From Candidatus Kapaibacterium sp. (GTDB lineage Bacteria > Bacteroidota > Ignavibacteria > Kapaibacteriales > UBA2268): a stretch of 64,000 nt of DNA. A model generated the notes under the pieces. That model was not told the origin of the DNA, did not search any database, and saw only the letters and a program-made list of their open reading frames with translations. The position numbers and the translations under genes are program-made. This document shows, piece after piece, positions 1-57,054 of this stretch. The stretch's first letter is position 1. Every line of letters begins with the position of its first letter. Where the stretch lies: positions 66,235 to 130,234 of the forward strand of contig JBAYUQ010000001.1 in NCBI GenBank assembly GCA_041675005.1, read 5' to 3'.

Positions 1-111
1 AGTCGTCTTTCCTGACCTATAGTTGTCAAACTAATTCTAGCCGAACCCATTTGACTGCTACAAATATAGCAATAATTAATTAATTATTAACATATTTAGG
101 GAGTAAAAATT
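1..111 (+). promoter_or_regulatory. Conserved leader/promoter element, copy A (probably truncated by the window edge), upstream of cassette A.
   Basis: ~90% identical to 50286-50401 and 54076-54193 (motif agtcgtYtttcctgacctRtagttgtcaaactaattct...ccgaacMcatttgac...acaaatatagcaataatta...ttattaacatattt). Contains a TTGTCAAA/TTTGAC inverted repeat. TTTG and TAatTAtT boxes ~19 nt apart resemble a Bacteroidota-type -33/-7 promoter. Confidence 0.6.
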
Positions 112-1692
112 ATGAAAAAGTATATTATACTATTCATGCTTCTTTTAGGAGCAAGTAACCCACTTTATAATCAAATTGATTCTATTTGGATAGGGAATTC
201 GCCAGAGCCATGTATTACAACACACATAGATAATGATACTTGTTACAGGACGAGTGGTTGGGTAGGTCCAATGACAGATACTATTCGTGGTATTTATGGG
301 GATCCAAATTGTAATCCCAATTGTTACTTTGTAGTTGTGTATTATGAAAGATTTGATACACTTAATACTCAATGTTACGGTGAGGAATATAAAGAATACC
401 AAGATGATGAAGTACAGTCTTATTACCCTTTTATTTCAGGTATTTATTGGTATGGAGAAGACGATTGTTACGAATGTGAATCTGATAAATTGGAACTTTA
501 TTTTATTGAGAATTTTTATAAAGATGCAGAAGAGGAAATGCCAGGTATAATAAACAACTTATCGGTTTGTTATTTTGGTGGGATAAGAGTCCATTGCGAA
601 GGTATTGCAACACAATATTATACTATAGGAAAATGTTACGATAATGACGGTAAAGAATGTGATAAGGGTACTCAACGGTGTTGCACAAATAGAATAAATG
701 TAAATTCAGATGCAACAGATACATTAAATAGACAAGTGGATTCTATTACTTACTTCCCAGGTGGTAGTGGTCCTCTTCCCCCTTGCCCTGGTAGTTGCGA
801 AGATGGATGTGACCCCAAAAAGAAAAGCTTGTTAGCAGGGCTATCTACTTGCGCTATTCCTTGTAATGAGGGGCTATGGATAGCAGATTCATCTGAAACA
901 ATTACAATTGATTCATTGCTTACTGGTTGTAGTGGATGTACGATTAAAATTCATTATAGTTATCGAAATAACAATAATCCTTCTTGTCCAGACAATTACA
1001 AAGATGCACGGTTCGATTCTATTTCCTATGACTGTCTTGATAATAGCTGTATAGATCAACTAACCCCAGAGGAAATGGTTGCTTATGTGAATGAGTGGCT
1101 TTTAAAATATAGCATAGTAAATAATGTACCACTAGGTGGATGTAGAGATAATTATAGATTAGTGAATGCTCTCTGTGTTACTGACTTTGACACAATATCC
1201 CATACAGGATTGGGTGATTGTAACCCTTTATATAATGATCAGCTAGGATGTTGTTGGGGCAGATATTTAGTTTGTCAAGTAGCACCTAATGAATATACTG
1301 CGGTGAAAATAGATGGTTCTGAAATGATTGGTGATACTTGCGTTTGGTTTACTCGCCCTTGTATACCTATTTGTGATAACGTTTATAATAGTATAATGAG
1401 CGACCCTAATGATCCTTTTGGAGAGAATACTTTCGAGGACGTATATAGGGCAATGGAAACAATTGAAAAAGCAGAGAGCTATGTTGTCTCTTCAGTTAAT
1501 GAAGGGATAAATGTATATGATAAAATAGGAAGAGAAAGTAAGGTTCTTATATATGATTTATTTGGCAAGTTAGTCGGAAATGAGAATACACTCCCTATTA
1601 TGTATCAACACTTAGTTAAGGGTACGTACTTTATAACTGTAAAAGTAGGTAATAATGTTTTAAAAATCTATAAAATCTATATAGAAAAATGA
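112..1692 (+). CDS. Cys-rich secreted protein (~38 Cys) with a T9SS-like C-terminal sorting domain; cassette A, gene 1.
   Basis: N-terminal signal peptide. Dense Cys motifs; module GCSGCTIKIHYSYRNNNNPSCP is shared with the Cys-rich proteins at 43036, 54194 and (weakly) 50402. C-terminus ...IYDLFGKLV...GTYFITVKVGNNVLKIYKI is T9SS-CTD-like. Confidence 0.75.
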   Translation: MKKYIILFMLLLGASNPLYNQIDSIWIGNSPEPCITTHIDNDTCYRTSGWVGPMTDTIRGIYGDPNCNPNCYFVVVYYERFDTLNTQCYGEEYKEYQDDEVQSYYPFISGIYWYGEDDCYECESDKLELYFIENFYKDAEEEMPGIINNLSVCYFGGIRVHCEGIATQYYTIGKCYDNDGKECDKGTQRCCTNRINVNSDATDTLNRQVDSITYFPGGSGPLPPCPGSCEDGCDPKKKSLLAGLSTCAIPCNEGLWIADSSETITIDSLLTGCSGCTIKIHYSYRNNNNPSCPDNYKDARFDSISYDCLDNSCIDQLTPEEMVAYVNEWLLKYSIVNNVPLGGCRDNYRLVNALCVTDFDTISHTGLGDCNPLYNDQLGCCWGRYLVCQVAPNEYTAVKIDGSEMIGDTCVWFTRPCIPICDNVYNSIMSDPNDPFGENTFEDVYRAMETIEKAESYVVSSVNEGINVYDKIGRESKVLIYDLFGKLVGNENTLPIMYQHLVKGTYFITVKVGNNVLKIYKIYIEK

Positions 1693-3050
1693 AAACATCA
1701 TTAATAATAATAACATTTATGCTTCACTCATCACTTTTTTGTGGTGAGTGGACTAATTTAAGTAATCTAGGAACGAGTTTAGTAGCACCTAAAGTTGAAG
1801 CTGTTAATGATAATGTGATGATCTCTGGAAATGTTGGTGGGATTATCCCTCATGTATTCAAATCAACTGATAGAGGAGTGACCTGGGAAATTGCCTTAGA
1901 TGATTCTGTTAAAAGAGATGAGACTGGAAAAGTTATATATCATCCTAGAAGAATGAATGATTTTAAATATATGACTGAAGACCACGCTTTTATAATGAAT
2001 GAAGGGACTTTATATTGGTACACTTCTGATGGAGGGGACACTTGGTTTCAAGATAGTATTATAGATGGTTCAAAAGGTGGGGTAAATCGATACATAAATT
2101 TTAACTCTAAAGGATATGGTGTTACAAGTATTTATGACTTATACCTTACAAAAGATTGGGGTAAGACTTTTGAGACTATTGAAATAAAAAGTGAAACCGA
2201 TACTTTGATTAATAAATCAGTTTATGATGATTTAATAATTACAGATGATGGATTAATATTTGGAGCAGGATATTATATAGTAAAGCCATATCATGAAGAT
2301 AATAAACTATTCACTGTACTATCTAAAGACTTAGGTAAAACTTGGGAAGTTAGTTCTATTCTTGAGAAAAGAATGAATGCATACACCCAATTATCGAATG
2401 GAAATATAATTGCAGTTGGTTCAGAACAAACCAAACCAAACGCATCAACGTTCAAAGATATAATACAAATATCTACTGATGGAGGATATAGTTGGGAAGT
2501 TGTTTTAGATACTTTATCATCTCCTAGTAGTATATTATGGGATGTCGAATTTATCAATGACAATGATGGAATTACTTTTTCTCCGGGTTTCTCGAAGTTA
2601 TTAAGAACCTCAGATGGTGGTAGGACTTGGTACAGGGATTATGGAACTTATGATTTACCAGAATCACCTGAGGATTATGCTTATCTTCCGAATGGAGAAA
2701 TACTAGCAGTTGATAGAGCAGGAGAGGTCTCCAAATGGTCTGACCCAGTACTTAGTGTGGAAGATGATAGCAAGTTCAATACTGAACCAAGCATCAAACT
2801 TTATCCAAATCCATTATCAATAAACGAACCTTTAAATATAGAGTTCTTACCTCGTTATTTAGGACAAATAGAACTTTCAATAATAGATATAACAGGCAAA
2901 AAGTTAAGTTCATATACTTTAGATATAATAGGAAATAACAAACAAACATTAACCTATAAACCTGATAATGATCTAACTTCGGGTACATATTTCATCCAAA
3001 TCGGCTATAAGAACGGAATAGCTGAAAGACAAAAGTTTGTGGTGGAGTAA
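1689..3050 (+). CDS. Asp-box/BNR-repeat beta-propeller protein (Ycf48/sialidase-like fold) with a T9SS C-terminal domain; cassette A, gene 2.
   Basis: Six repeats of the STDRGVTWE / SDGGDTWF / TKDWGKTFE / SKDLGKTWE / STDGGYSWE / TSDGGRTWY type. C-terminal KLYPNPLS...GTYFIQIGYKNGIAERQKFVVE is a Por_Secre_tail. ATGA start/stop overlap with the upstream gene indicates translational coupling. Confidence 0.8.
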   Translation: MKTSLIIITFMLHSSLFCGEWTNLSNLGTSLVAPKVEAVNDNVMISGNVGGIIPHVFKSTDRGVTWEIALDDSVKRDETGKVIYHPRRMNDFKYMTEDHAFIMNEGTLYWYTSDGGDTWFQDSIIDGSKGGVNRYINFNSKGYGVTSIYDLYLTKDWGKTFETIEIKSETDTLINKSVYDDLIITDDGLIFGAGYYIVKPYHEDNKLFTVLSKDLGKTWEVSSILEKRMNAYTQLSNGNIIAVGSEQTKPNASTFKDIIQISTDGGYSWEVVLDTLSSPSSILWDVEFINDNDGITFSPGFSKLLRTSDGGRTWYRDYGTYDLPESPEDYAYLPNGEILAVDRAGEVSKWSDPVLSVEDDSKFNTEPSIKLYPNPLSINEPLNIEFLPRYLGQIELSIIDITGKKLSSYTLDIIGNNKQTLTYKPDNDLTSGTYFIQIGYKNGIAERQKFVVE

Positions 3051-3074
3051 CAAACTCCAACAAAATATAAACAC

Positions 3075-3101
3075 AAAAAAGCTCCCTCGGGAGCTTTTTT
3101 G
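3075..3101. terminator. Bidirectional rho-independent terminator between convergent genes.
   Basis: aaaaaaGCTCCCtcGGGAGCtttttt: GC stem flanked by an A-run and a T-run. Confidence 0.7.
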
Positions 3102-9333: not shown

Positions 9334-10157
9334 ACTTTTATCAAATTATCATTTTTCTGAATTACAGCTTCTATTATACTAAAGTCCGAAAGTATATCTG
9401 GGCCATTACTAGTAATTGCTATATTATGCTCAAAATGAGCTGACATCTCTCTGTCTTTAGTTACTATTGTCCATTTATCTTCTAATTCTTCTACTTCATA
9501 AGTACCGACATTTATCATTGGTTCAATTGCTATAGTCATACCACGTTTTAGTACTCTTCCTCTACCTTGTTCGCCATAGTTTGGTACTTGGGGGTCTTCA
9601 TGTAGTTTTCGTCCTAAGCCATGCCCAACTAATGACCTAACAACACTGAAACCTCTATCTTCGCAATACTTCTGAATGGCGTATCCAATATCACCAACAT
9701 GATTTCCTATAACACATTGTGCAATTCCTTGGTATAAAGATTCTTTTGTTACTTCCATTAACTCAATTGTTTTAGGAGCAACTTCGCCAATTGCAAAAGT
9801 ATAGGCGTGATCACCATAATAACCATTTTTTAAAACTCCACAATCAACAGAGATTAAATCACCATTTTTAAGTGGTATATCTGAAGGTAATCCATGTACA
9901 ACTGCTTCATTAACGGAGGTTAGTAAAGTACTTGGACAGCCATACAAACCTAAAAATCCAGGATTTGCATCATTATCTCTGATGAATTGCTCAGCCATTG
10001 TATCCAGCTCCTTTGTTGTCATACCTTCTTTGATATGCTCTGCTACCAATGCAAGTGTTTTAGAAACCAGAGTTGCAGATTCACGCATTAACTCTATTTG
10101 TGATGGACTTTTATAATGTATCATTTTAATAACTCCAATTGTCTGAGTTTTAGTCAA
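9330..10157 (-). CDS. map: Methionine aminopeptidase type I.
   Basis: Pita-bread fold motifs: ...GYYGDHAYTF..., HGLGRKLHEDPQVPNY. Confidence 0.85.
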   Translation of the reverse strand: MTKTQTIGVIKMIHYKSPSQIELMRESATLVSKTLALVAEHIKEGMTTKELDTMAEQFIRDNDANPGFLGLYGCPSTLLTSVNEAVVHGLPSDIPLKNGDLISVDCGVLKNGYYGDHAYTFAIGEVAPKTIELMEVTKESLYQGIAQCVIGNHVGDIGYAIQKYCEDRGFSVVRSLVGHGLGRKLHEDPQVPNYGEQGRGRVLKRGMTIAIEPMINVGTYEVEELEDKWTIVTKDREMSAHFEHNIAITSNGPDILSDFSIIEAVIQKNDNLIKV

Positions 10158-42675: not shown

Positions 42676-42897
42676 ATTTTTTCTTGTTTTGGATTTCTAA
42701 TAATCCGAAAATTAATCATTTTTGGGGGAATATTTATAGAATTGAATATATTTCTTAACGAGAAATAGTAACAAAATATTAATAATATTAAATTAAATTC
42801 GGCAAAATGAAAAAATAATTAGGTTATTTCATTATTTTTTTTTTTAGTTTCAATTAAATTTTTATTTTAAATCAGAAATTAGTGGGAAAAAATAATA

Positions 42898-43035
42898 AAG
42901 GTCAGAAAAAACTTCGTGGGTAATTCCTGACCTGTATTTATCATCTAAAATTGCACACCTCAAATGATATTTACAAATTTAATGAATTATCCTCAAACAA
43001 TTAAATAAATATTAATTTTTATAGGAATTTCAGAA
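42898..43035 (+). promoter_or_regulatory. Degenerate copy of the cassette leader element upstream of cassette B.
   Basis: ggtcagaaaaaac...cctgacctgta retains the GTCAG/CTGAC inverted repeat and the ttatagg box; the central part has diverged. Confidence 0.4.
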
Positions 43036-44016
43036 ATGAAAAAAATTACAAACATATTGATTGCTCTTGGAGTAACACTATTCCTTCTGACAGTTGGGAT
43101 GAAAAGCGAGGCGGAGGCACAAACACCGCATTGTGATGGTGATCCATGTGTGAATGCTTCTGCTTGTGGTTCTTGGATTCAAGCACCAGATTTACCCATC
43201 CCATTAGACCCAAATTGCCCTTCTTGTATTATGACAATTCGTTACAAATACAGGGATAACTCTGGGTGTAATAATCCATGTCCTAATGCACCTAAATTTG
43301 AATTCCAAATAGATTATGTAGTAACAGATGGTTCTTGCTTTTATCCTTGCAATGGAAACCCTGCTCAGTATAGTTTTAGTCAGATGGATAAATTATATAT
43401 GGAAGCAGTATTTCAGTTAATTAAAAAATATTCATTACCATTTATAACTGTTCCACCGAATCCACCTTTAGGGTGTGGACCTGTTATTCCGAACTTTAAA
43501 GGGACTTCATGTAAAAAGCAATATATTGCTCCTGACGGAAATGTATATATTTTGACTTGTTTTCTAACTGAATGTTGCGTTCAAAATCTTCAATTCTGTG
43601 TAGATATAAACGGTAAAGAGACTATGACTAAGGCTAATATTTATTCGCCGCCTGATAATTGTGGTACTGATCCCGATGGTTTAAGTTGTACTTATTCATG
43701 TGACTGGGAATGGGAAGAATCATTAGTACCAAAAGAAGTGAAAGCACTTCCAAATAATATTTATGATAATTATAAAGTAGATTATACTATTGACCCAAGT
43801 AATTTGAATATAAAATTAGAAGGAGAATTAAATGGGAAGCTTTCTCTAAATATCTTTAGCACTGAAGGTGTTAGTAATATTTATGAAGTATTCAACGTAA
43901 ATGAGACAAGTTTTGAAATTAACTTAGATAATAATTTTACCAATGGTGCTTATTATATGGCTTTCAGTCTCAACGGTGAATTAATTAAAGTTGAAAGTTT
44001 CATGATAGTAAAATAA
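43036..44016 (+). CDS. Cys-rich secreted protein with a T9SS-like CTD; cassette B, gene 1.
   Basis: Signal peptide. NCPSCIMTIRYKYRDNSGCNNPCP and TECCVQNLQFCVDING modules are homologous to the 112-1692 protein. C-terminal ...LSLNIFSTEGVSNIYEV...GAYYMAFSLNGELIKV. Confidence 0.75.
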   Translation: MKKITNILIALGVTLFLLTVGMKSEAEAQTPHCDGDPCVNASACGSWIQAPDLPIPLDPNCPSCIMTIRYKYRDNSGCNNPCPNAPKFEFQIDYVVTDGSCFYPCNGNPAQYSFSQMDKLYMEAVFQLIKKYSLPFITVPPNPPLGCGPVIPNFKGTSCKKQYIAPDGNVYILTCFLTECCVQNLQFCVDINGKETMTKANIYSPPDNCGTDPDGLSCTYSCDWEWEESLVPKEVKALPNNIYDNYKVDYTIDPSNLNIKLEGELNGKLSLNIFSTEGVSNIYEVFNVNETSFEINLDNNFTNGAYYMAFSLNGELIKVESFMIVK

Positions 44017-44034
44017 CAATTCTGAGGTTTTGAT

Positions 44035-45486
44035 ATGATTAAGTATATATTACTATTATTACTAGCAAATAGCTCAGTATTCTCTGTTGATTTTAATAAA
44101 TATGATTTTACTCCATTATTGGTAAAGGAGGGATTTATATTAGAGCAAATCGAAACAAATAGTACTGGTAACATTATTGTATCTGGATATAATAAAATAG
44201 GCGATGATCCTCAAACTCATATTTTTAATAATGTGGTATTGAAATCAATTGATAAGGGATTAAATTGGACTATTATTTATTTAGATTCCAATGAAACTTT
44301 ACCCAAATCTGAAAGGAGTTTCTACAATGTTGAAGAATTGAAGTATTTGGATAACGGTAATATATTACTTTTTTCTCATACAGGGTATATTTTACAATCG
44401 TTTGACGATGGTGAGACTTGGATAAGAGATTCATTAGGTGTGTTCAAAACTCCAGTACAGGTCGAATTTATTGATAGTGAAAATGGTATTGCACTATTTT
44501 TTAAATCTTATGATAAGAAACTTACTACAGAACTATACTTGACAAACGATGGTGGAATGAATTGGAACGAATTAAATGTTCCAGTAAACGCTTTACTTGA
44601 ATATGAAACAGAATTAAGAATAGGGGAGTTCTATTCTTTCGGTGAAGGTACTATTTCATTTTTTATGGTTGATCGTCATTACGAAAATGATTCATTGATT
44701 GAATCAACGAATTACTTAATCAGTTCTCCTAATTATGGTACAACTTGGGAAAAGGAGATATTTAATTTGCCTGTGGAACGTTCAAGAATAAAGTTTTTAG
44801 ATGATAAGTATATTATTCTATTTGGTATTTTGCAATCCAAAACTCATTTTGACAATTTAGGAAATCCTTTTGGTCACGATATTGTTTTGGAGAGCTTCGA
44901 TAGAGGGACTTCTTGGGATACACTTTTAATTAATTTAGATACTAATGTTAATTCTAGTATACAAGGTAGTCTTGAGTATGTTGATGAAAAATATTTATTA
45001 TTCAGGGGGGCAAACTCTGGCATAAGTATTTTTGACAGAGGAAACAAAGGTATTATAGCCCTTTACCCAAATAATATCTTAGAATTAAGAGAACAGTACA
45101 ATTATCAGAATAGCTACGATTATATAAGATTTGGAGATAAAATACTAGTTACTGGTGGTGGTGGTTATCTTTTTTATGTTGACTACAAAAGTCCGATAAC
45201 TTCGGTAGAAGATTTGTTTAGTCAGTCTGAATTAGAGATTTATCCAAACCCAGTTTCTCGTAGTCAATCTATTAATTTAAAATTAGCCCCAGTAGCATGG
45301 GGTATTTCTACAATTTCTATTATTGATATGAATGGTAGAACTATTTCCTCTTTTGATAGGAACTTAACTTCTATTTCAGAGACTTTAGAAATCAATCCAA
45401 ATAATAGTTTGACTTCGGGTCTGTATTTTGTCCAGATTGAATATCCAAACGGATTTGTCGATAGACAGAAGTTTATCGTCAATTGA
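44035..45486 (+). CDS. Asp-box/BNR beta-propeller protein with a T9SS CTD; cassette B, gene 2.
   Basis: SIDKGLNWT, SFDDGETWI, TNDGGMNWN, SPNYGTTWE, SFDRGTSWD; C-terminal EIYPNPVS...GLYFVQIEYPNGFVDRQKFIVN. Confidence 0.8.
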   Translation: MIKYILLLLLANSSVFSVDFNKYDFTPLLVKEGFILEQIETNSTGNIIVSGYNKIGDDPQTHIFNNVVLKSIDKGLNWTIIYLDSNETLPKSERSFYNVEELKYLDNGNILLFSHTGYILQSFDDGETWIRDSLGVFKTPVQVEFIDSENGIALFFKSYDKKLTTELYLTNDGGMNWNELNVPVNALLEYETELRIGEFYSFGEGTISFFMVDRHYENDSLIESTNYLISSPNYGTTWEKEIFNLPVERSRIKFLDDKYIILFGILQSKTHFDNLGNPFGHDIVLESFDRGTSWDTLLINLDTNVNSSIQGSLEYVDEKYLLFRGANSGISIFDRGNKGIIALYPNNILELREQYNYQNSYDYIRFGDKILVTGGGGYLFYVDYKSPITSVEDLFSQSELEIYPNPVSRSQSINLKLAPVAWGISTISIIDMNGRTISSFDRNLTSISETLEINPNNSLTSGLYFVQIEYPNGFVDRQKFIVN

Positions 45487-49248: not shown

Positions 49249-50009
49249 TGGAAGAAGGCAAATCAGTTCTATCAGCACAAGGACTAATCAAAATCTATGG
49301 CAAACGAACAGTTGTCAAAGGGATAGACATAGAAGTAAAGCAAGGTGAAATAGTCGGTCTGCTTGGTCCCAACGGAGCTGGTAAGACTACAGCCTTCTAT
49401 ATGATAGTTGGTATGGTTCGACCGAATAAGGGTATAGTACGAATAGATGATAAAAAGATTACCCGTAAGGCGATGTACCAACGCGCTAGAATGGGTATTA
49501 GTTATCTGCCACAAGAGCCATCTATATTCCGTAAGCTATCAGTTGAAGATAATATAAAAGCTGTACTCCAGCTACAAAAAGGACTCAGCCGAAAGCAAGT
49601 AAAGGAAAAGTTAGAACAGCTCCTTGAAGATTTTAAAATTGCTCGTGTGCGTAAGAGTAAGGGGTATATGCTTTCGGGAGGGGAGAGACGCCGTTGCGAG
49701 ATAGCCCGAACGCTAGCATCAGACCCCAAATTCATTCTCTTAGATGAGCCATTCGCAGGAATTGACCCTATTTCAGTAGAAGATATTATGGATATTATCT
49801 TTGCTCTTAAAAACAAGGGAATTGGAATACTAATCACCGATCACAACGTCCACGAAACTCTGTCAATCACTGATAGAGCTTACATTCTAATAGACGGCAG
49901 TCTATTCACGAGCGGAAAATCCGAAGAAGTAGCTGCTAATCCTGATGTCCTCAAGTTTTACCTCGGCGAGAATTTCCGCTTGGAAAGATACGTACCTAAA
50001 GACCTATAA
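49248..50009 (+). CDS. lptB: LPS export ABC transporter ATP-binding protein.
   Basis: Walker [10 protein letters not shown]; signature LSGGERRR; Walker B ILLDEP; GTG start overlapping the htrA stop. Confidence 0.85.
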
Positions 50010-50130
50010 GCAATAAGTAAATTCGCCACTTTTGCCTACTTTGTTACTAATTCAACTCCCCCTTAACTCTAGTTATAACATTTATATACAATTGTTGATA
50101 AAAGCTGCTTGTTTTTTAAAATAAATTTGG

Positions 50131-50145
50131 ATTTTATTTTATTTT
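50131..50145. repeat. (ATTTT)3 pentanucleotide tract in the cassette C upstream region.
   Basis: ggATTTTATTTTATTTTaaac; the homologous position in the duplicate copy (53896-53935) carries 8 units. Confidence 0.8.
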
Positions 50146-50278
50146 AAACTTGATACAAATGAAATTAATCAATATTTGTAAACTGTTCTATAAAATGAAT
50201 TACAAATGAATCCAACAACAAAGCACCACTCATCTGGAGGCAAAAAGTGGTTTTCAAATTCTAGTAGATATAAAAAAA

Positions 50279-50401
50279 GTCAGAAAAAACGAAAGTCGTT
50301 TTTCCTGACCTGTAGTTGTCAAACTAATTCTGACCGAACACATTTGACAGTCACAAATATAGCAATAATTATTTATTATTAACATATTTATAGGTAAGCA
50401 A
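50279..50401 (+). promoter_or_regulatory. Conserved leader/promoter element, copy C.
   Basis: 13-bp imperfect inverted repeat GTCAGAAAAAACG-aaagt-CGTTTTTCCTGAC (50279-50309); TTGTCAAA-N19-TTTGACAG inverted repeat; putative -33 TTTG and -7 TAatTAtT boxes; ends at the ATG. Confidence 0.6.
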
Positions 50402-51001
50402 ATGAAAACTCTAAAATTTATCTTATTAAGCGTAGTTGTTTTTATTATAACTATTAATTTCTCTAATGCCGCTCCTTGTCCTTTAGGACAAAGTACTGTT
50501 TATAAGACTTTCCTAATAACTTACAACGGTGTATCTTGTTGGGTTGAAGCACAAATCTGTGCCGATTGTGATATTACTGGAAGTAATGTATATTTAGCAG
50601 TGAACGACATAAAAAAACCAAGTTACCCAGGAATTCCAACAGCCATAATTTATCAACAAGTTGCTGCTCAGTTATCTGAGAATGTATTTGAAATCTGTCA
50701 AATTGAACCTTGTAGTTCTCCTACAACTTCAAAAGTTTACGTAAAAACACCAGTTTGTGTGAAAAAATCTGCTGTTATGGAATTTGGAAACCTTTATATT
50801 TATATTATACCTTGTGATTGGAGTGCATACTATGAAGTTTATACACAAACTTGTTTTGATCCAATTTTGGATGACTATATAACAACACCAGTTGGTGTAG
50901 AAAAGTTTGGAACACCAAGTTGTACTGCGTTAGCCGAACCAGGCGATCCAGCTATAGATAACGTTACAGATTGCTACCAACAAGACTGTTTTCAAGATTA
51001 A
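50402..51001 (+). CDS. Small Cys-rich secreted protein (no CTD); cassette C, gene 1.
   Basis: Signal peptide (..SNA/AP); 14 Cys; C-x2-E-x3-C-x2-C and P.IP...I..Q...Q.S modules shared with the 54194-54838 protein. Confidence 0.7.
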   Translation: MKTLKFILLSVVVFIITINFSNAAPCPLGQSTVYKTFLITYNGVSCWVEAQICADCDITGSNVYLAVNDIKKPSYPGIPTAIIYQQVAAQLSENVFEICQIEPCSSPTTSKVYVKTPVCVKKSAVMEFGNLYIYIIPCDWSAYYEVYTQTCFDPILDDYITTPVGVEKFGTPSCTALAEPGDPAIDNVTDCYQQDCFQD

Positions 51002-51014
51002 TAATAATAGAAAT

Positions 51015-53444
51015 ATGAAATACATTTTAATTCTTATAGCTTTAAGTACTAACCTTATAGCACAGCAATTCAATATAACCCCTTTGAGTATTAATTTCAA
51101 TGGGGTTATATCTATTGATGATAATATAGTTATTTATGGTGATAACGGTTATTATTATTTCTCTCAAGATGGAGCAAATAATTGGGAACAAAGACTGTTG
51201 CTTGAGCAAAAGAACATTCGCAAAATACAAGAGAATAATGGCGTACTTTATGGTATTTTGGAAGATGGTTATCTGATCAAATCAACTAACAAAGGGTTAG
51301 ATTGGAGGATAACGAAATTTGAAAATGATACTAGTATGAAATTTGTTACTATGGATGTAAATGATAAAAATGTATATGTCCGAGGCATAGACGAAATTTT
51401 AAAATTTGACTTAGATTTTAACTTAGTTAAAAGATATAAAAATTCAATTCTAAACTATTATGGGCCATCCCTAATCTTCACTTATGATGTGAATTTAATA
51501 AACAAATTCATACAGTATTATAATGGTTATTTAGTTGTTCCTCTACAAAATGAAAATTATCTGATTTTAAACGATGAATTAGAATATATTAAGGAAGTCT
51601 ATCTCATTGATTCTTTAGATGCGATTGATGACCCAGATGCTAGATTGATAGATATGATTGTATATGGTGATGAATTATTAGTCACTCTTGATGGTCCCAT
51701 TAAAAGTGGATTAGACTATTTTATAATAAATGAAACAAATCTACTCGGGAAGTGGGATGAAATAGTTCTTAGTAAAGATAGAAAAAGACTTTTATTTAGT
51801 AGCTTTAAAAATGAACTTTATACTTTAGAATTTAGTGTTGAAACTAATGAAGAAGATGTTGGAAGTACTTGGAGATTTAAGGCAAGTGTTAGTAAATATA
51901 GATTACGAAAATATAATAAAGTTACTAATGATTTTGATTCAATCGGGGAATGGTTTGATTCATTTTTTGTTCTTGGTTTAACTAGAGTTACAGAAAATGG
52001 ATACTCGCCTATTTATACAAATAAACCAAATATAACATCGGATTCAACTGTATTAGTAGTTGGTGATAAAAAAACTATTCTTACCTCACAATATGGTAAA
52101 AACTGGAATTTATTCTCTTATATTGAAGGAACTCCTAGTCAGATATTTAATGATAACGTCTATTTGAATAAAGGTATTTACGCTTCTACGACGAAAGACG
52201 GTGGACTATCAAGCACAAATAGGCGAATAGTAGATACTACTGATTGTCATTATTGCAAATTCACTAATTTTCATCAATCATTTATCAGCCCCAATGGAAA
52301 TGGTTTTCTTTATGGAAGTCCAATTTATGACACTTGGGCTAATATTGGATTTACCAAAGATAGTGGCAATACTTTTGAATTTTCATACAATACTGATTTC
52401 TATTTTAGAACTTTCAAATTTGCAACAAACTTTGCTGAATTAGGAGACGAGTATTGTACAATCCATAATCGAAAAACAACCGCTTCTAACCCTTTGCTTA
52501 GCAGTATGTGGGTTACGTATGCATATTACTTCAATAAAGATGATTTCAGTGATTATAGGATGGAAGTATTAGATACTAACGAATATAGATACTATTACTT
52601 ATTTACTCAAAGTGCGGATTATTATCAACAAGTTAGATATAACTTCGAACAACTTCACCCTAAAGATCAGTTTTTAGAGATAAGGACTACAACTGATGCT
52701 GGTAAGAGTTGGACTTCTTTTCATAAGATTCAGAATTATTCGGAGAATTTTAAGTTTTATGAGCATAACAAAGATAGTTTATTTATTACTAGCTATGGAT
52801 ACACAAGTTATGGGGATTTTGATTATACTAATAGAGTGTATCTTTATGACAGAACGAGAGATGTAGTCGATACCTTATTTAGTGAAGACGAGGTAAATAG
52901 AAAAAATCTGCAACTTGTTTTCTTTGATAATCATTTTTATATAATGGGTGATAGCATACTCAAAGTAGGTAATAAAACTCTAACAGAATGGTCTGATGTA
53001 CAGAATTGGCCAACTCAGAACCCATCATTTGAAGAAGTCTTATCGAATGGAAATGTAATTCTAACTAAATACAAAGATGATACTAGAAAGTCAAAGGATT
53101 TCTATTTAGATAATTATTATAAGATAGTAGCTGATAAAACTACAGATGTCGAAATTACAACTGTTGCGCTTAGAACTTATGAAGCATATCCAAATCCAAC
53201 TACTGGGAAAGTATTTGCTGAGATATATTGGCAATCTGGTTTTGATATATTTGAATCTATCAAAGGTGTTTATGATATATCAGGTAATCTGGTTTCAACA
53301 AGGGAGCAAATCGCATTGACAAAATCCCATAACTATTCTGGATTATTAGAATGGGATAGTAGCTCACATCCGTCCGGGATTTATTTCATTGTAATTAAAC
53401 ATGGGAACAATAAACAATCGATTCCATTTGTGGTGGTTGAATAA
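51015..53444 (+). CDS. Large Asp-box/BNR beta-propeller protein with a T9SS CTD; cassette C, gene 2.
   Basis: SQDGANNWE, STNKGLDWR, TTDAGKSWT, TKDSGNTFE; C-terminal AYPNPTTGKV...GIYFIVIKHGNNKQSIPFVVVE. Confidence 0.8.
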   Translation: MKYILILIALSTNLIAQQFNITPLSINFNGVISIDDNIVIYGDNGYYYFSQDGANNWEQRLLLEQKNIRKIQENNGVLYGILEDGYLIKSTNKGLDWRITKFENDTSMKFVTMDVNDKNVYVRGIDEILKFDLDFNLVKRYKNSILNYYGPSLIFTYDVNLINKFIQYYNGYLVVPLQNENYLILNDELEYIKEVYLIDSLDAIDDPDARLIDMIVYGDELLVTLDGPIKSGLDYFIINETNLLGKWDEIVLSKDRKRLLFSSFKNELYTLEFSVETNEEDVGSTWRFKASVSKYRLRKYNKVTNDFDSIGEWFDSFFVLGLTRVTENGYSPIYTNKPNITSDSTVLVVGDKKTILTSQYGKNWNLFSYIEGTPSQIFNDNVYLNKGIYASTTKDGGLSSTNRRIVDTTDCHYCKFTNFHQSFISPNGNGFLYGSPIYDTWANIGFTKDSGNTFEFSYNTDFYFRTFKFATNFAELGDEYCTIHNRKTTASNPLLSSMWVTYAYYFNKDDFSDYRMEVLDTNEYRYYYLFTQSADYYQQVRYNFEQLHPKDQFLEIRTTTDAGKSWTSFHKIQNYSENFKFYEHNKDSLFITSYGYTSYGDFDYTNRVYLYDRTRDVVDTLFSEDEVNRKNLQLVFFDNHFYIMGDSILKVGNKTLTEWSDVQNWPTQNPSFEEVLSNGNVILTKYKDDTRKSKDFYLDNYYKIVADKTTDVEITTVALRTYEAYPNPTTGKVFAEIYWQSGFDIFESIKGVYDISGNLVSTREQIALTKSHNYSGLLEWDSSSHPSGIYFIVIKHGNNKQSIPFVVVE

Positions 53445-53455
53445 AAATAAATCTA

Positions 53456-53481
53456 AAGGAGCCAACTCGGCTCCTTTTTTC
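53456..53481 (+). terminator. Rho-independent terminator of cassette C.
   Basis: AAAGGAGCCaactCGGCTCCTTTTTT. Confidence 0.75.
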
Positions 53482-53608
53482 TATTTATTCTCCTCTTACA
53501 ATAACTAACTTAATAACAAGTTTATACACCAATCATTATTTGTTTGCAATTGCTTCTTTTTGATAGTAATTTTGCAACTACCTAAAAAGATAATATTTGG
53601 AGATTAAT

Positions 53609-53773
53609 ATGCCATTCGTTCCAGCATCGGACAAAGATAGAGCATATATACTAATAGACGGCAGTCTATTCACTAGCGGAAAATCCGAAGAAGTGGCTGC
53701 TAATCCTGATGTCCTCAAGTTTTACCTCGGTGAGAATTTCCGCTTAGAAAGATACGTCCCGAAAGACCTATAA
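53609..53773 (+). pseudogene. Chimeric 54-codon ORF marking the tandem-duplication junction: gcvPA codons 1-11 fused in frame to the last ~43 codons of lptB.
   Basis: Translation MPFVPASDKDR|[43 protein letters not shown]. The first part matches 57183..., the second matches 49879-50009. The junction lies at the shared GATAGAG microhomology. Confidence 0.85.
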
Positions 53774-53895
53774 TCAACAAGTGAACTTGTTCCCTTGTTC
53801 CAATATTGTCACCCTCCCTATACATTTCTAACTCTAGTTATAACACTGCGATAAAAATGTTAATAAAAAACGCTTGTTTTTAATAAATAATTTGG

Positions 53896-53935
53896 ATTTT
53901 ATTTTATTTTATTTTATTTTATTTTATTTTATTTT
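53896..53935. repeat. (ATTTT)8 pentanucleotide microsatellite in the cassette D upstream region.
   Basis: Eight tandem ATTTT units, versus three at the homologous position 50131-50145. Confidence 0.85.
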
Positions 53936-54068
53936 AAATTTGATACAAATGAAATTAATCAATATTTGTAAACTGTTCTATAAAATGAATTACAAATGAA
54001 TCCATCAAAAAAGCACCACTTAACTGGAGACAAAAAGTGGTTTTCAAATTCTAGTAGATATAAAAAAA

Positions 54069-54193
54069 GTCAGAAAAAACGAAAGTCGTTTTTCCTGACC
54101 TGTAGTTGTCAAACTAATTCTTGCCGAACACATTTGACAGTTACAAATATAGCAATAATTATTTATTATTAACATATTTTGTGGAGTTAAAAA
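54069..54193 (+). promoter_or_regulatory. Conserved leader/promoter element, copy D.
   Basis: Near-identical to 50279-50401, including the GTCAGAAAAAACG/CGTTTTTCCTGAC hairpin (54069-54099). Confidence 0.6.
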
Positions 54194-54838
54194 ATGAAAG
54201 CAACAATTAACAATTTGATTTTTTTAAGTATAACAATATTCGTTGCCAAAAGCATTAATATTGAAGCCAAACCTATTTGTACCAAACCATGGGTAAATAT
54301 CGTAGATACAGTTACAGTTGACGGATGTGATTATGAAATAGATTTATGTGTATACTGTGCATTCGCTTATCCAGGGAAAGTTAAAATTAATTATTATAGA
54401 AATATTAGTGGATGTACACCTACCATACCACCTAATCAAATAACAAATCAAATTATATCTCAAATCTCAACGTATGCCTATTTTTGGTTTGATTATTGTC
54501 AATTCAATTTACCCCCGTGTTCAGGTTCACTGCGTAAAAAAATAGAATGGGATATTTATATATGTTGGAAGGCTAAATTAGTAATTAAAGGTGCGACCCC
54601 ACATGATGATGTCTACCTCCATTTACCTTGTGAAGATAATGATACCTTCTGTCGTGTTACTTATTCTTATTGTGTAGATGAGTTTGCCGTTGTTCATCAT
54701 AATGTTTCTGGATACTTAGGCTATAATTTTGATCCTTCATGTACACTGGAAGGTTCAGCAGTATTCCCTTTACCACCATCCGCTATGGTTGGAGATGAGA
54801 CAGCATGTTACGTTTTACACACGGTATGTAACCCATAG
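54194..54838 (+). CDS. Small Cys-rich secreted protein (no CTD); cassette D, gene 1.
   Basis: Signal peptide; 20 Cys; CVYCAFAYPGKVKINYYRNISGC matches the CxxC-x3-I-x-Y-x-YR-N module of the 112 and 43036 proteins. Confidence 0.7.
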   Translation: MKATINNLIFLSITIFVAKSINIEAKPICTKPWVNIVDTVTVDGCDYEIDLCVYCAFAYPGKVKINYYRNISGCTPTIPPNQITNQIISQISTYAYFWFDYCQFNLPPCSGSLRKKIEWDIYICWKAKLVIKGATPHDDVYLHLPCEDNDTFCRVTYSYCVDEFAVVHHNVSGYLGYNFDPSCTLEGSAVFPLPPSAMVGDETACYVLHTVCNP

Positions 54839-54844
54839 AATAAT

Positions 54845-57001
54845 ATGTATAAATTTCTTATAGTATTAATTTTCATAATCCCTTTTGCATCAAATGCCAA
54901 TATTTGGACTAAGGCGGATGGGCCATTTGGTTATGCTATGTCGTACAATATTTTCAATTATGATAATAATCTATATTCATCTAGTCAATCTAATGGTTTA
55001 TCAGTATATAAATTAGATAATAAAGAATGGACACGATTAGATACTGGTTTCTTTTCTGGCAAAGGATTAATACATTATTTTGATCAAAAAGAAAACGTAG
55101 TACTTACTTCTACTGATTCAGGTATTTATTTGTCCTATAATTATGGAAAGGACTGGAAGCATTTTGATACATTAGGTGGTTTTGATAGATTTCATTTTGT
55201 CACCATTGTTGACGAAACAATATTTTTACAATCCAACCAATTCAGAAGTTTGTATAAACTTGAAAAGGGTTCTGAGACTTTAGAAAAAATATATGCTAAT
55301 GAACAAAAAACAGACTCTATATTTGCTGATGTTATTATAACGAATGATAACTATATTTTTGCTGCTGACCCTGTTAAACATTATGATGTTCAAGATAAAG
55401 AAGGGACATTATATATATCAAGTGACAAAGGAGAAAGTTGGAAACTATCTGAAACAATGAATAAAAAAATCAAGAATTTATTATTTCATGAGGATATATT
55501 ATTAGCCTTTACTGAAGAAGATGGATTATTTAGGTCAACCGACTACGGAAAAAGTTGGACTACTGATACAAATTTAGTAATTAAATCAAATAAAGTAGCT
55601 TCCTATAAGAATTTGATTTTTTCATGTGAGAACGAAATACAAATTTCTACTGATAACGGAATCAGTTGGAAAGTTCAAAACAATGGTTTAAAGTCAATTG
55701 CTTGTAGGGATATTCGTATAGTAAATGATACATTATATTACTTTACAAATCAAAGAATAATATATTATTTCGATTATGAAAATAAATTGTGGATAAGAAA
55801 TACTCCAATTACTGATGACGTGTCTCAAGAGTTTATTTCAGCAGAAAATGATACTCTATTCACAACAGGATCATATACGATAAACTATTCGATTGATAAT
55901 GGATTAACTTGGAGTATATATAGTGATAGTTTGTATTACAATTTTACAAACATTGGAAGAATATATAAGCAAGATAGTGTAATATTTGCCTTAAATCGCC
56001 TTAATTCTTTACTCTTAATCTCGATTGATTATGGACAATCTTGGAGATTTGAAACTTTAGGAAAATCTGAAAATCAACCTTGGATAGGCGATGTATTGCT
56101 AATGGACAATCGAATACTCCTCTTTACAAAGTTTGGTAATTTTTATTCTGAAGATGTTGGTTTAAATTGGGTTGAGTATGAAGGGGAAGTACTAGATAAG
56201 GATGTGAAAGTAAGAAGATATTATAGACTAAGTAATTCCAAAATAATTGTTTATAGTGAGGTAGGGCTTTATCTAACCTATAATAATGGATTAACTTGGG
56301 TCTATGAAAAAGCTGACGAAGAAGTAATGACCCACTACTATACTTACAGAGAAGATAATAATTTATATACAATGGACTTTCTTGAATTTGATCAAATATA
56401 TAAATCTACTAACTTAGGACGTACTTGGGTTGATTTAGAAATAAATATAGAATCTGGTTTAAGGTGGGCTAGTATAATACCATATAATGGTAATTTAATA
56501 TTGTTAACTAGTACTGGAGTTTTTGTTTCTGATAATGAAGGAAAAGAATGGACAAAATATGAGATTAATTTATTTACTCCTGACCAAAAGGAACTTTATT
56601 TCTATAGTGGGTTAATTGTTGATGAGTGTTTAGTATTAACCTCTGCTTATGGTAATTGGCGAGCGAAACTCTCCGATCTTGGAGTTGAAGTAAAGTCTTC
56701 CGTCGAATCAGAAATAGAGCGAAACTATCTATATACTTATCCACCATACCCTAACCCAGCAAAATCAGAGGTAAAGGTTCTGTTTTATTGGGATATAAAC
56801 TTACCAATGACGACAGACGACATTAGCATATATGATATAACTGGTAAGAAAATAGATGCGATTGATAAGATTAGCTTAGTTAAGCAAGAGAGTCATTATG
56901 GCAACCTAATCTGGGATTGCTCTACAGCTCAGCCGGGTATATACCTAATCAACATAAAACATGGCACAGAAGAGAAAACCGTGAAAGTGGTGGTGGAGTA
57001 G
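54845..57001 (+). CDS. Asp-box/BNR beta-propeller protein with a T9SS CTD; cassette D, gene 2.
   Basis: Ten Asp-box-like repeats (SYNYGKDWK, SSDKGESWK, STDYGKSWT, STDNGISWK, SIDNGLTWS, SIDYGQSWR, SEDVGLNWV, TYNNGLTWV, STNLGRTWV, SDNEGKEWT); C-terminal YPPYPNPAKSEV...GIYLINIKHGTEEKTVKVVVE. Confidence 0.8.
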   Translation: MYKFLIVLIFIIPFASNANIWTKADGPFGYAMSYNIFNYDNNLYSSSQSNGLSVYKLDNKEWTRLDTGFFSGKGLIHYFDQKENVVLTSTDSGIYLSYNYGKDWKHFDTLGGFDRFHFVTIVDETIFLQSNQFRSLYKLEKGSETLEKIYANEQKTDSIFADVIITNDNYIFAADPVKHYDVQDKEGTLYISSDKGESWKLSETMNKKIKNLLFHEDILLAFTEEDGLFRSTDYGKSWTTDTNLVIKSNKVASYKNLIFSCENEIQISTDNGISWKVQNNGLKSIACRDIRIVNDTLYYFTNQRIIYYFDYENKLWIRNTPITDDVSQEFISAENDTLFTTGSYTINYSIDNGLTWSIYSDSLYYNFTNIGRIYKQDSVIFALNRLNSLLLISIDYGQSWRFETLGKSENQPWIGDVLLMDNRILLFTKFGNFYSEDVGLNWVEYEGEVLDKDVKVRRYYRLSNSKIIVYSEVGLYLTYNNGLTWVYEKADEEVMTHYYTYREDNNLYTMDFLEFDQIYKSTNLGRTWVDLEINIESGLRWASIIPYNGNLILLTSTGVFVSDNEGKEWTKYEINLFTPDQKELYFYSGLIVDECLVLTSAYGNWRAKLSDLGVEVKSSVESEIERNYLYTYPPYPNPAKSEVKVLFYWDINLPMTTDDISIYDITGKKIDAIDKISLVKQESHYGNLIWDCSTAQPGIYLINIKHGTEEKTVKVVVE

Positions 57002-57027
57002 GAATTCCCAATCACAAAGTAAAAACA

Positions 57028-57054
57028 AAAGGAGCCAACTTGGCTCCTTTTTTC
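57028..57054 (+). terminator. Rho-independent terminator of cassette D.
   Basis: AAAAGGAGCCaactTGGCTCCTTTTTT; one-base difference from the cassette C terminator. Confidence 0.75.

Follow-up and report, generated by a model that had tools for sequence, protein, structure and literature searches.

A conserved 'leader' in front of T9SS cargo cassettes of Candidatus Kapaibacterium is a candidate small RNA gene on the opposite strand

We analyzed a 64-kb stretch of DNA (hereafter, the window) that is part of a 580-kb metagenome-assembled contig (ENA ERZ27247358), labelled at NCBI as Candidatus Kapaibacterium sp., Ignavibacteriota. The window contains four two-gene cassettes, A (112-3050), B (43036-45486), C (50402-53444) and D (54194-57001). 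Each encodes a Cys-rich secreted protein followed by a BNR/beta-propeller protein with a terminal type IX secretion (T9SS) sorting domain. Cassette A adjoins the downstream side of porU-porV. The cassette proteins are distant kin that share ~27% mutual identity, most pairs only across short patches. No SusC/TonB-dependent receptor domains were found among the genes downstream of the element described below. Cassettes C and D have the following gene content.

50402-53444, plus strand: cassette C, with C1, a 199-aa Cys-rich secreted protein (50402-51001), and C2, an 809-aa protein with a T9SS C-terminal sorting domain (51015-53444)
54194-57001, plus strand: cassette D, with D1, 214 aa (54194-54838), and D2, a 718-aa BNR-repeat protein with a T9SS sorting domain (54845-57001)

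All four cassettes are preceded by a copy of the same repeat, which we refer to as the element: copy A at 1-68 (cut by the window edge), copy B at 42888-42990, copy C at 50266-50366 and copy D at 54056-54156. A 27-mer, CCTGACCTGTAGTTGTCAAACTAATTC, occurs with at most one mismatch at 11-37, 50304-50330 and 54094-54120, where the chance expectation is 0. Copies A, C and D are 87-98% identical (C and D, 97.6% over 125 nt; C and A, 89.8% over 98 nt when gapped and 76% ungapped), and copy B is ~68% identical to C. We built a covariance model from 12 copies and used a 16-copy alignment for the pair counts given below. A search of the 64-kb window with this model (filters off) returned exactly the four copies, copy C matching at 50266-50366 on the minus strand with 110.9 bits. 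An uncut version of copy A, in locus L003 (9862-9962), scored 101.5 bits with the model.

An earlier reading of the window, made from the letters alone (the sequence-only reading), had described three close copies of a leader-like element and a degenerate version at 42898-42950. The three close copies are present, together with a fourth, diverged one; copy B is not degenerate but a complete diverged member that spans 42888-42990 (89 bits, E 4e-20). The same reading had the identity reach the start codon. The copies are indeed similar, but their identity ends 12-15 nt before the ATG, and the ribosome-binding regions differ. For C and D the similarity also reaches far upstream (50131-50389 and 53921-54179, 97%) and resumes farther back (49872-50021 and 53636-53785, 92%), where it includes a duplicated piece of the upstream ABC-ATPase gene.

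Both inverted repeats that had been noticed in the element are present. The element is best read on the minus strand, as a small RNA gene of ~80 bases with a promoter box, a stem-loop and a terminator. On that strand, the order in every copy is a TAnnTTTG box (exact or near-exact), a stem-loop of 7-8 bp, a hairpin of 13-16 bp and a run of 6-8 U. This architecture is kept in 16 copies from at least nine Ignavibacteriota/Kapaibacterium assemblies. The predicted parts in the window are given below; we infer the ends of the copy C RNA from the sequence.

50272-50351, minus strand: predicted small RNA of copy C, ~78-80 nt, from just past the -7 box (TSS region) to the end of the U-run
50354-50361, minus strand: -7 box of copy C, TATATTTG, an exact TAnnTTTG
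50317-50349, minus strand: stem-loop 1 of copy C, UGUCAAAU...GUUUGACA, apical part variable
50277-50311, minus strand: predicted intrinsic terminator of copy C, 16 pairs and a loop of 3, with the U-run at 50272-50278 and the tail TTTTTATATC
50362-50401, no strand assigned: AT-rich spacer that separates the C1 start codon from the small-RNA -7 box
54062-54141, minus strand: predicted small RNA of copy D (covariance model, 113.8 bits), with the -7 box at 54144-54151, stem-loop 1 at 54107-54139 and the terminator at 54067-54101
42893-42971, minus strand: predicted small RNA of copy B, the diverged type (covariance model, 89.1 bits, E 4e-20), with the -7 box TAAATTTG at 42974-42981, stem-loop 1 at 42940-42968 and the terminator at 42900-42932
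1-68, minus strand: copy A, cut by the window edge, with the 3' arm of the terminator, stem-loop 1 at 24-56 and the -7 box at 61-68

We examined the three parts in turn, starting with the box. On the minus strand, TATATTTG runs from 50361 to 50354, from 54151 to 54144 and from 68 to 61, and the copy B box TAAATTTG runs from 42981 to 42974. The primary sigma factor of Bacteroidota has TAnnTTTG as its -7 box (PMC7366714), and the RpoD motif of Chlorobi, a sister group, is likewise of the Flavobacterium type (bioRxiv 10.1101/172254). All four window copies and the majority of the 16 aligned ones have the exact motif, and its distance from stem-loop 1 is constant. Of the 16, 15 preserve the TTTG core, the exception being TTGG in L075a; the deviant boxes are TATATTGG in L075a and TTTATTTG in L070b. 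No unpaired block of the element is better conserved than the box, whose columns average 93% identity. Intergenic exact TAnnTTTG motifs in this genome lie in the sense direction 11-40 nt before the start codon (8 out of 35 upstream regions), and the same positional peak (10-40 nt, sense) was found in 80 upstream regions of related genomes. The only antisense motifs near start codons that are not owed to a divergent gene are those of the four cassette copies. By inspection of the minus strand for a -33 TTG/TTTG element 17-23 nt from the -7 box, we found no TTG in the A/C/D type, and a spacing of 16 nt in B. This is a weak point of the promoter assignment, although the -33 element is often undetectable (PMC7366714). 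On the plus strand, there is no exact TAnnTTTG within 200 nt upstream of any of the four cassettes. Two other motifs were considered and rejected: a plus-strand sigma-70-type promoter (TTGACA-17-AATTAT), whose 'TTGACA' is a covarying arm of stem 1 and is absent from the B types, and an ECF-like GAAC motif, which sits in a variable loop and is not conserved (L007).

The sequence-only reading had found no U-run behind one of the inverted repeats and had set aside a terminator. This holds for the plus strand, which has no U-run and does not qualify as an intrinsic terminator. It fails on the minus strand, where the A7 at 50272-50278 is a U-run; a terminator scan called a terminator there from 50311 to 50277. 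The first 9 nt of the tail contain 6-8 U in all complete copies (14 out of 14), and the 3' hairpin with its U-run is, on the minus strand, like a textbook intrinsic terminator. It closes no protein-coding gene, and the sole unit available to it is the ~80-nt unit that starts from the conserved box. Because the plus strand has A·C mismatches and no U-run, transcription in the sense of the cassette can pass the hairpin.

Folding also distinguishes the strands. On the minus strand, nine full copies fold into one two-hairpin shape with a U-tail at -21 to -31.5 kcal/mol (z -3.5 to -6.6), compared with -12.6 to -20.7 kcal/mol (z -0.3 to -3.9) on the plus strand. Copy C reaches -31.5 to -33.4 kcal/mol (z about -6) on the minus strand. 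Its stem-loop 1 alone gives -12.4 kcal/mol (z -3.2) on the minus strand vs -6.6 kcal/mol (z -0.8) on the plus strand, and the values for stem-loop 1 of copy B are -10.8 and -1.3 kcal/mol, respectively. The plus-strand stem-loop 1 does not differ from shuffled sequences (z -0.8 and -0.65). For the copy C terminator hairpin alone, the energies are -19.1 kcal/mol (minus) vs -13.3 kcal/mol (plus).

The pairs themselves vary as expected of an RNA read from the minus strand. In that reading, the core stems of the 16 aligned copies comprise 215 Watson-Crick, 36 G·U, 1 A·C and 9 other cells. The positions at which both inverted repeats look 'imperfect' are A·C mismatches on the plus strand and G·U wobbles on the minus strand. 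This asymmetry would arise neither from a palindrome in DNA nor from an RNA of the plus strand. The plus-strand structured leader proposed in the sequence-only reading is thus disfavoured by 36 G·U cells against 1 A·C, and the box and the U-tailed terminator are also on the minus strand. Standard pairs fill 88-90% of the cells (88.2% in the 16-sequence alignment) vs 38-49% when the partners are slid (38.7-49.3%). Between 9 and 11 pairs are altered on both sides (11 in the 16-sequence alignment). The covariation score for the same alignment is 0.256 vs 0.133 after shuffling, and none of 500 shuffles scored as high. RNAalifold predicted the same two hairpins independently.

In stem-loop 1, 5 out of 8 basal pairs switch on both sides between types and pairing is kept: GUCAAAU/GUUUGAC in A, C and D, AUCAUUU/AGAUGAU in the window copy B and ACCAUUU/AGAUGGU in L070 and L075b. 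Its loop length is variable, with arm spacings of about 15, 16, 19 and 21 nt. The terminator changes from A-U to G-C in L074 and from A-U to G·U in several lineages. The linker and 5' terminator arm, UACAGGUCAGGAA, are nearly invariant in all types. The number of independent covariation events is modest (~8), because the sequences represent two main types and a few subtypes. The proposal that the element holds an RNA structure is nonetheless borne out by compensatory pairs above the controls, and comparing the copies by covariance model and folding, as had been suggested, gave a shared two-hairpin structure with compensatory changes. In the A/C/D type, the reiterated TGAC/GTCA half-sites that had been singled out are nothing more than the two stems' arms, and the B type lacks them in stem 1. 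An outer 4-bp helix (columns 16-19/59-62) appeared in single-sequence predictions and was dropped, as it overlaps the promoter and shows no compensatory change. We also rejected two open reading frames. A minus-strand ORF of 25-30 codons (MCSVRISL...) is present in C, D, A and L007, but its frame is broken in L005 and the B types lack its start codon, and a plus-strand ORF of 66 codons through the element in C and D meets an early stop in A and L005.

We searched for relatives of the element in other genomes. When species-representative genomes were scanned for the pattern, three further Ignavibacteriota MAGs proved to contain the hairpin. A first metagenome pattern scan gave 0 matches; a second gave 40 loci, among which only L029 is real (a decayed copy from the JGI metagenome collection). 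Three pattern matches on viral contigs were discarded, as the covariance model confirmed none of them. Further copies were gathered via homologs of the cassette proteins and then their contigs. The model matched before each of the cassettes newly fetched via a D1-family first gene (L071/72, L074, L075 twice, and L076-79), and the second L075 copy fronts an unrelated T9SS pair of 548 and 1212 aa. Each of these elements is divergent from the first ORF of a T9SS cargo operon, which it precedes by 40-55 nt. About 20 out of 20 copies share this distance and one orientation, which is the same for all copies in all assemblies. The view that the element goes with the cassette family, and not with one duplication, therefore holds across genomes too. 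One ortholog of cassette B (L067/L068, 88% protein identity) is without the element, so the element is not indispensable to the cassette. In 371 kb of unrelated loci, the covariance model found nothing credible beyond the known L029 copy; the sole other match is weak (28.6 bits, E 5e-4, in L009, a Deltaproteobacteria MAG). Short-read contigs of several assemblies break off within the element, as expected of a multicopy repeat.

Dispersal at unrelated loci, which would have spoken for a MITE, was not seen: in the window, the fetched cassette loci and the 371 kb of unrelated loci, copies were found only before T9SS cargo operons, in a single orientation. Tests for a MITE or REP found no flanking TIR or TSD. 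An inverton test for inverted repeats of 15-30 bp bracketing a promoter found only the two hairpins and low-complexity AT-rich repeats. The whole window has 0 matches to Rfam 15 at the gathering threshold, and three permissive Rfam scans of the elements gave only sub-threshold chance matches. The element matches no described RNA family.

The sequences on either side of the predicted small RNA gene are conserved in part. The spacer contains the upstream part of the small-RNA promoter and the Shine-Dalgarno-like AGGTAAG of the cassette. In the A/C/D types, it holds a conserved block, AATAATTA..TTAAC/ATATTT, and the identity of C and D stops at 50389. The other side is occupied by a longer conserved region.

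50100-50271, plus strand: upstream module of the A/C/D-type element, conserved in seven loci from five assemblies, and also in L071, L074 and L076

This module contains (ATTTT)3 at 50131-50145, ATTTGTAAA and two occurrences of TACAAATGAA, and at 50236-50264 a GGAGG-containing hairpin or 5-codon mini-ORF. Judging from its sequence, the module probably houses the promoter or leader of the cassette. In the B-type and L070b copies, the long A/C/D upstream module is missing. The (ATTTT)n tract upstream of the element is of variable length.

We assessed the conservation of the element by comparing the window with related loci. The A1 orthologs of the window and L005 are 80% identical as proteins and 54% at four-fold sites, and the element is ~87% identical. 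In L074, porU-porV and the genes downstream of them share 82-84% identity with the window, and ordinary intergenic DNA is unalignable; the module can be aligned, with 74% identity overall. These comparisons show the element to be much better conserved than synonymous sites, the signature of purifying selection. The cassettes at porU-porV in the two genomes are unrelated, A-type in the window vs D-like in L074.

The similarity of C and D belongs to a tandem duplication of 3.76 kb, the junction of which is as follows.

53449-53785, plus strand: tandem-duplication junction of two fused copies; 53449-53640 duplicates the cassette terminator, the promoter of gcvP and the ~30 nt with which gcvP begins, and 53636-53785 duplicates the final 150 nt of the ABC-ATPase gene

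The flanks of C and D are 92-97% identical and their coding cassettes are unrelated, and therefore each repeat unit holds its own 'allele' of a replaceable cassette. The signal peptide is mosaic as well: MKK.TNILVALGVTLFLLTVGMKSEAEA is common to B1, L010 and several D1-family proteins, and the proteins that share it differ in their mature parts or in their element types. Coding cassettes are exchanged between loci and between genomes, and the module remains in place.

On balance, we consider it rather likely that the conserved 'leader' is a small RNA gene of ~75-80 nt on the opposite strand and a probable antisense repressor of the cassette leader. The two parts of this reading differ in strength: an independent small RNA gene on the opposite strand is highly probable, and its action by antisense repression of the leader is a tentative proposal, with a chance somewhat under one half. 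In the proposed mechanism, transcription from the primary-sigma -7 box (TAnnTTTG, 50361 to 50354 in copy C) would begin a few bases ahead of stem-loop 1, and the hairpin with its U-run (50311 to 50272) would stop the small RNA. The portable 5' module consists of the predicted small RNA gene and, in most copies, the conserved region of ~150-250 nt, within which the cassette mRNA would begin. An mRNA that starts there would have a long 5' leader fully complementary to the small RNA. Repression of the cassette by the cis-encoded antisense RNA could then proceed through RNA duplex formation, processing or head-on transcriptional interference. Given the 87-98% identity of A, C and D, each small RNA could act on the leaders of the other cassettes, and the diverged B type may form a separate specificity group. 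We favour the cis-antisense role because the upstream region of 150-250 nt, the natural seat of a cassette promoter or leader, travels with the element, and because the terminator is unidirectional, so that transcription of the plus strand could continue past it.

The same small RNA gene could also be arranged divergently. The cassette promoter could lie in the AT-rich spacer of 40-55 nt, back to back with that of the small RNA, and the two transcripts would then not overlap; the small RNA would have other targets in trans, or its promoter and that of the cassette would be rivals for polymerase. We regard this arrangement as less likely, although a divergent trans-acting small RNA is a serious alternative because no exact plus-strand -7 box lies within the 200 nt upstream of the cassettes. 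The position of the other TAnnTTTG boxes, 11-40 nt from the ATG, implies short 5' UTRs here, and the AT-rich spacer offers weak TA-rich -7-like strings and, in the A/C/D types, a TTTG 19 nt upstream of TAATTATT. The arrangement would also suit the B-type and L070b copies with their missing long upstream module, and the near-invariant UACAGGUCAGGAA is what a seed or a protein-binding site might look like. However, the spacer has no good plus-strand -7 box, and the small RNA shows no significant complementarity to the eight cassette translation-initiation regions (|z| <= 2.3). The small RNA gene would, moreover, sever the co-travelling upstream module from the cassette promoter.

The remaining explanations dispense with an opposite-strand RNA gene. 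A structured 5' leader on the plus strand, that is, a cis-regulatory RNA or attenuator in the cassette mRNA, would account for the position of the element directly upstream of the ORF. The hairpins do form partly on the plus strand (the terminator arm at -13.3 kcal/mol), and the upstream hairpin or mini-ORF with its Shine-Dalgarno-like GGAGG suggests that this strand may be transcribed. This explanation is nevertheless very unlikely: plus-strand stem-loop 1 is no better than shuffles, 36 minus-strand G·U cells become A·C on the plus strand with only 1 in the reverse sense, there is no plus-strand U-run and no match to an Rfam cis-regulatory family, and the best-conserved unpaired block is the minus-strand box. 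That the inverted repeats are DNA operators of a dimeric transcription factor co-regulating the cassettes is, in our estimate, highly improbable. Several cassettes share the element, and the palindromic TGTCAAA...TTTGACA is near the promoter region; a shared regulator binding site had also been suggested. Yet both arms change jointly between types that coexist in one genome, the spacing of the arms ranges over about 15-21 nt, and the bias of G·U over A·C is of an RNA type that a DNA palindrome would not produce. As the arms covary and their spacing varies, an RNA stem fits and a dimeric protein site does not. We give an equally small chance to a selfish or structural repeat with no RNA function, whether MITE/REP-like or a homology arm that duplication and gene conversion left behind. 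Such a repeat would be multicopy and would end short-read contigs, and it would suit the exchange of cassettes between conserved flanks and the 97% identity of C and D, which is due to the recent 3.76-kb tandem duplication. It is at odds with the lack of terminal inverted repeats and target-site duplications, with the constant orientation and distance of ~20 out of 20 copies before T9SS cargo operons, with the near-absence of matches in 371 kb of unrelated loci (one weak match of 28.6 bits in the Deltaproteobacteria MAG, besides L029), and with conservation across genomes far above that of synonymous sites, accompanied by compensatory changes.

The antisense reading can be extended, at a probability we put well below that of the divergent arrangement. 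The module would act as an 'expression socket' for interchangeable T9SS cargo cassettes, in which near-identical antisense RNAs cross-repress the leaders of sister cassettes and the module doubles as a homology arm for cassette swapping between loci and strains. Together with the hypervariable (ATTTT)n tract and the mini-ORF, this might give variant-like or mutually exclusive expression of the surface and secreted proteins of Kapaibacteria. A comparable layout is found in variable surface-protein gene families such as the vlp/vsp loci of mycoplasmas, where a conserved upstream region and signal peptide are joined to a highly divergent mature coding part. The likeness includes an upstream simple-sequence tract of variable length. 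Unlike in vlp/vsp, the conserved block here holds a predicted opposite-strand RNA gene, and the cassettes are two-gene T9SS operons.

We compared the element with two known groups of small RNAs. According to the summary of Cao et al. 2016 in PMC7366714, DonS are PUL-associated cis-antisense small RNAs of Bacteroides that are divergent to susC genes, with members of 78-128 nt, one per operon, and reported repression of the cognate operon. The element resembles DonS in being a predicted short RNA, one per operon, from the opposite strand next to the 5' end of the first gene in paralogous surface or secretion operons, in a host of the same superphylum and with the same promoter type. It differs in its host phylum (Ignavibacteriota/Kapaibacterium) and in its association with T9SS cargo pairs instead of susC/susD PULs. 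Cognate repression is reported for DonS, whereas overlap with the mRNA and repression are only proposed here.

FopS is a 14-member paralogous small RNA family of Bacteroides thetaiotaomicron with canonical promoters (PMC11697453). Its members are about 65-70 nt long, have a sigma-ABfr-type promoter and a terminator hairpin, and regulate the first gene of many surface-protein operons; they act in trans through a single-stranded 5' seed that pairs beside the target start codon (PMC11697453). The element is like FopS in its multiple copies, size, promoter type and terminator hairpin, and it heads surface or secretion operons here. Unlike in FopS, the 5' part of the element RNA sits in stem-loop 1 in the minus-strand fold, and FopS-type seed pairing was not detected, the duplexes with the eight cassette initiation regions having energies no better than those with shuffled targets. 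Most FopS genes do not lie beside their targets, whereas the element always adjoins a cassette. The element is a member of neither DonS nor FopS: there are no PULs and no FopS-like seed pairing, and no sequence relationship has emerged. By analogy, it is best read as a new multicopy family among the operon-associated small RNAs of the Bacteroidota-Chlorobi-Ignavibacteriota group, and as a functional analogue of DonS and FopS.

The shared module explains why unrelated coding cassettes have a common 5' region, and why assemblies break there. It reveals the design of these loci, in which conserved regulatory flanks surround replaceable two-gene cassettes. To our knowledge, RNA regulators are essentially unknown in the Ignavibacteriota and Kapaibacteria, which are uncultured or barely cultured, and we know of none for T9SS cargo genes. 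The operon-associated antisense RNAs that we are aware of come mainly from gut Bacteroides. With its clear structure, strand-specific covariation and strict linkage to T9SS cargo, this candidate small RNA family provides a testable entry point, for which a covariance model and a predicted promoter and terminator are in place. Even if it were no more than an ordinary operon-associated antisense RNA, it would still be a new family in that class.

We compared the locus running from porU-porV to recG in the window with its ortholog in another assembly, L074, and compared the N-termini of first-gene products.

Window 1-3075 and L074 5692-9258: orthologous porU-porV ... recG locus
Window 43036-43120, L010 582-665 (another locus) and proteins P0002-P0004: common signal peptide MKK.TNILVALGVTLFLLTVGMKSEAEA

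The genes flanking the cassette at this locus are 82-84% identical between the two genomes. Between them lies the A cassette (526 + 453 aa) in the window genome and a D-like cassette (209 + 718 aa) in L074, and no alignment of these two cassettes was possible. Unalignable cassettes inside flanks of this similarity argue that cassettes get replaced between conserved flanks. Unrelated mature proteins (B1, the first gene product of cassette B, versus the D1 family) start with the same signal peptide, which occurs with either type of the upstream element (the predicted small RNA gene heading the cassettes, of A/C/D or diverged B type). This mosaicism places the recombination breakpoints inside the leader and signal-peptide region.

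Further observations concern cassettes and elements outside the window.

L067 8527-9007 and 15975-16607, and L068: B cassette without the element in a closely related genome
L029 5504-5608: decayed copy of the element
L070 1754-1870 and 4362-4478: tandem cassettes with diverged B-type elements

In the genome represented by L067 and L068, B2 (the second gene of cassette B) is 88% identical to its window counterpart. The element is absent from this B cassette, mutS takes the place of trpS upstream, and the ABC-ATPase gene is not followed by C/D cassettes. Elsewhere on the contig this genome does carry the element, ahead of a D-like cassette (L072). The L029 copy is cut off inside stem-loop 1 and joined to an ORF fragment, so the first cassette gene is broken. 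L070 holds two cassettes in tandem, each with one diverged B-type element; only about 45 nt separate the second element from the stop codon that ends the first cassette, and this gap holds no plus-strand terminator.

Cassettes C and D, which are unrelated, occupy the two units of a 3.76-kb tandem duplication.

Window 53449-53785: junction of the 3.76-kb tandem repeat
Window 53455-53477 and 57027-57051: bidirectional terminator, a perfect hairpin AAAAGGAGCC...GGCTCCTTTT flanked by T-runs on both sides

Two copied stretches are fused at the junction: one carries the cassette terminator together with the gcvP promoter and the initial ~30 nt of gcvP, the other the final 150 nt of the ABC-ATPase gene. 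The hairpin that ends both cassettes belongs to this duplicated 3' flank.

We identified two further features in the conserved upstream module that accompanies A/C/D-type elements.

Window 50131-50145 and 53896-53935, L003 ~9706-9735, L071 ~9729-9753, L076 ~9685-9715: pentanucleotide microsatellite
Window 50236-50264 and 54026-54054, plus strand: mini-ORF with GGAGG

The microsatellite lies some 250 nt ahead of the cassette's ATG and comprises (ATTTT)3 in C, (ATTTT)8 in D and about 6 units in A; in L076 it is (AATTT)n. Because unit number varies among paralogs and among genomes, the repeat is a candidate slipped-strand (phase-variation) tract. The mini-ORF consists of GGAGG, a gap of 6-10 nt, a GTG/ATG start and 4-5 codons (VFKF, VSKF, VLIF, VSQI, VSTI, VSHI and similar peptides), with its stop at a conserved position directly ahead of a hairpin. 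Of 11 A/C/D-type upstream modules, 10 contain it; the B types lack it. A small hairpin (CACCAC/GUGGUG) is built from the same bases and covaries in A (CACUA/UAGUG). The mini-ORF or hairpin could be a plus-strand leader peptide or an attenuator, or could reflect chance.

Regarding the cargo, D2 (window 54845-57001) matches NCBIfam NF045728, 'F510_1955 family glycosylhydrolase', at 111 bits, a strong yet sub-threshold score (cutoff 175), which hints that the second cassette genes encode BNR-propeller glycoside-hydrolase-like T9SS cargo.
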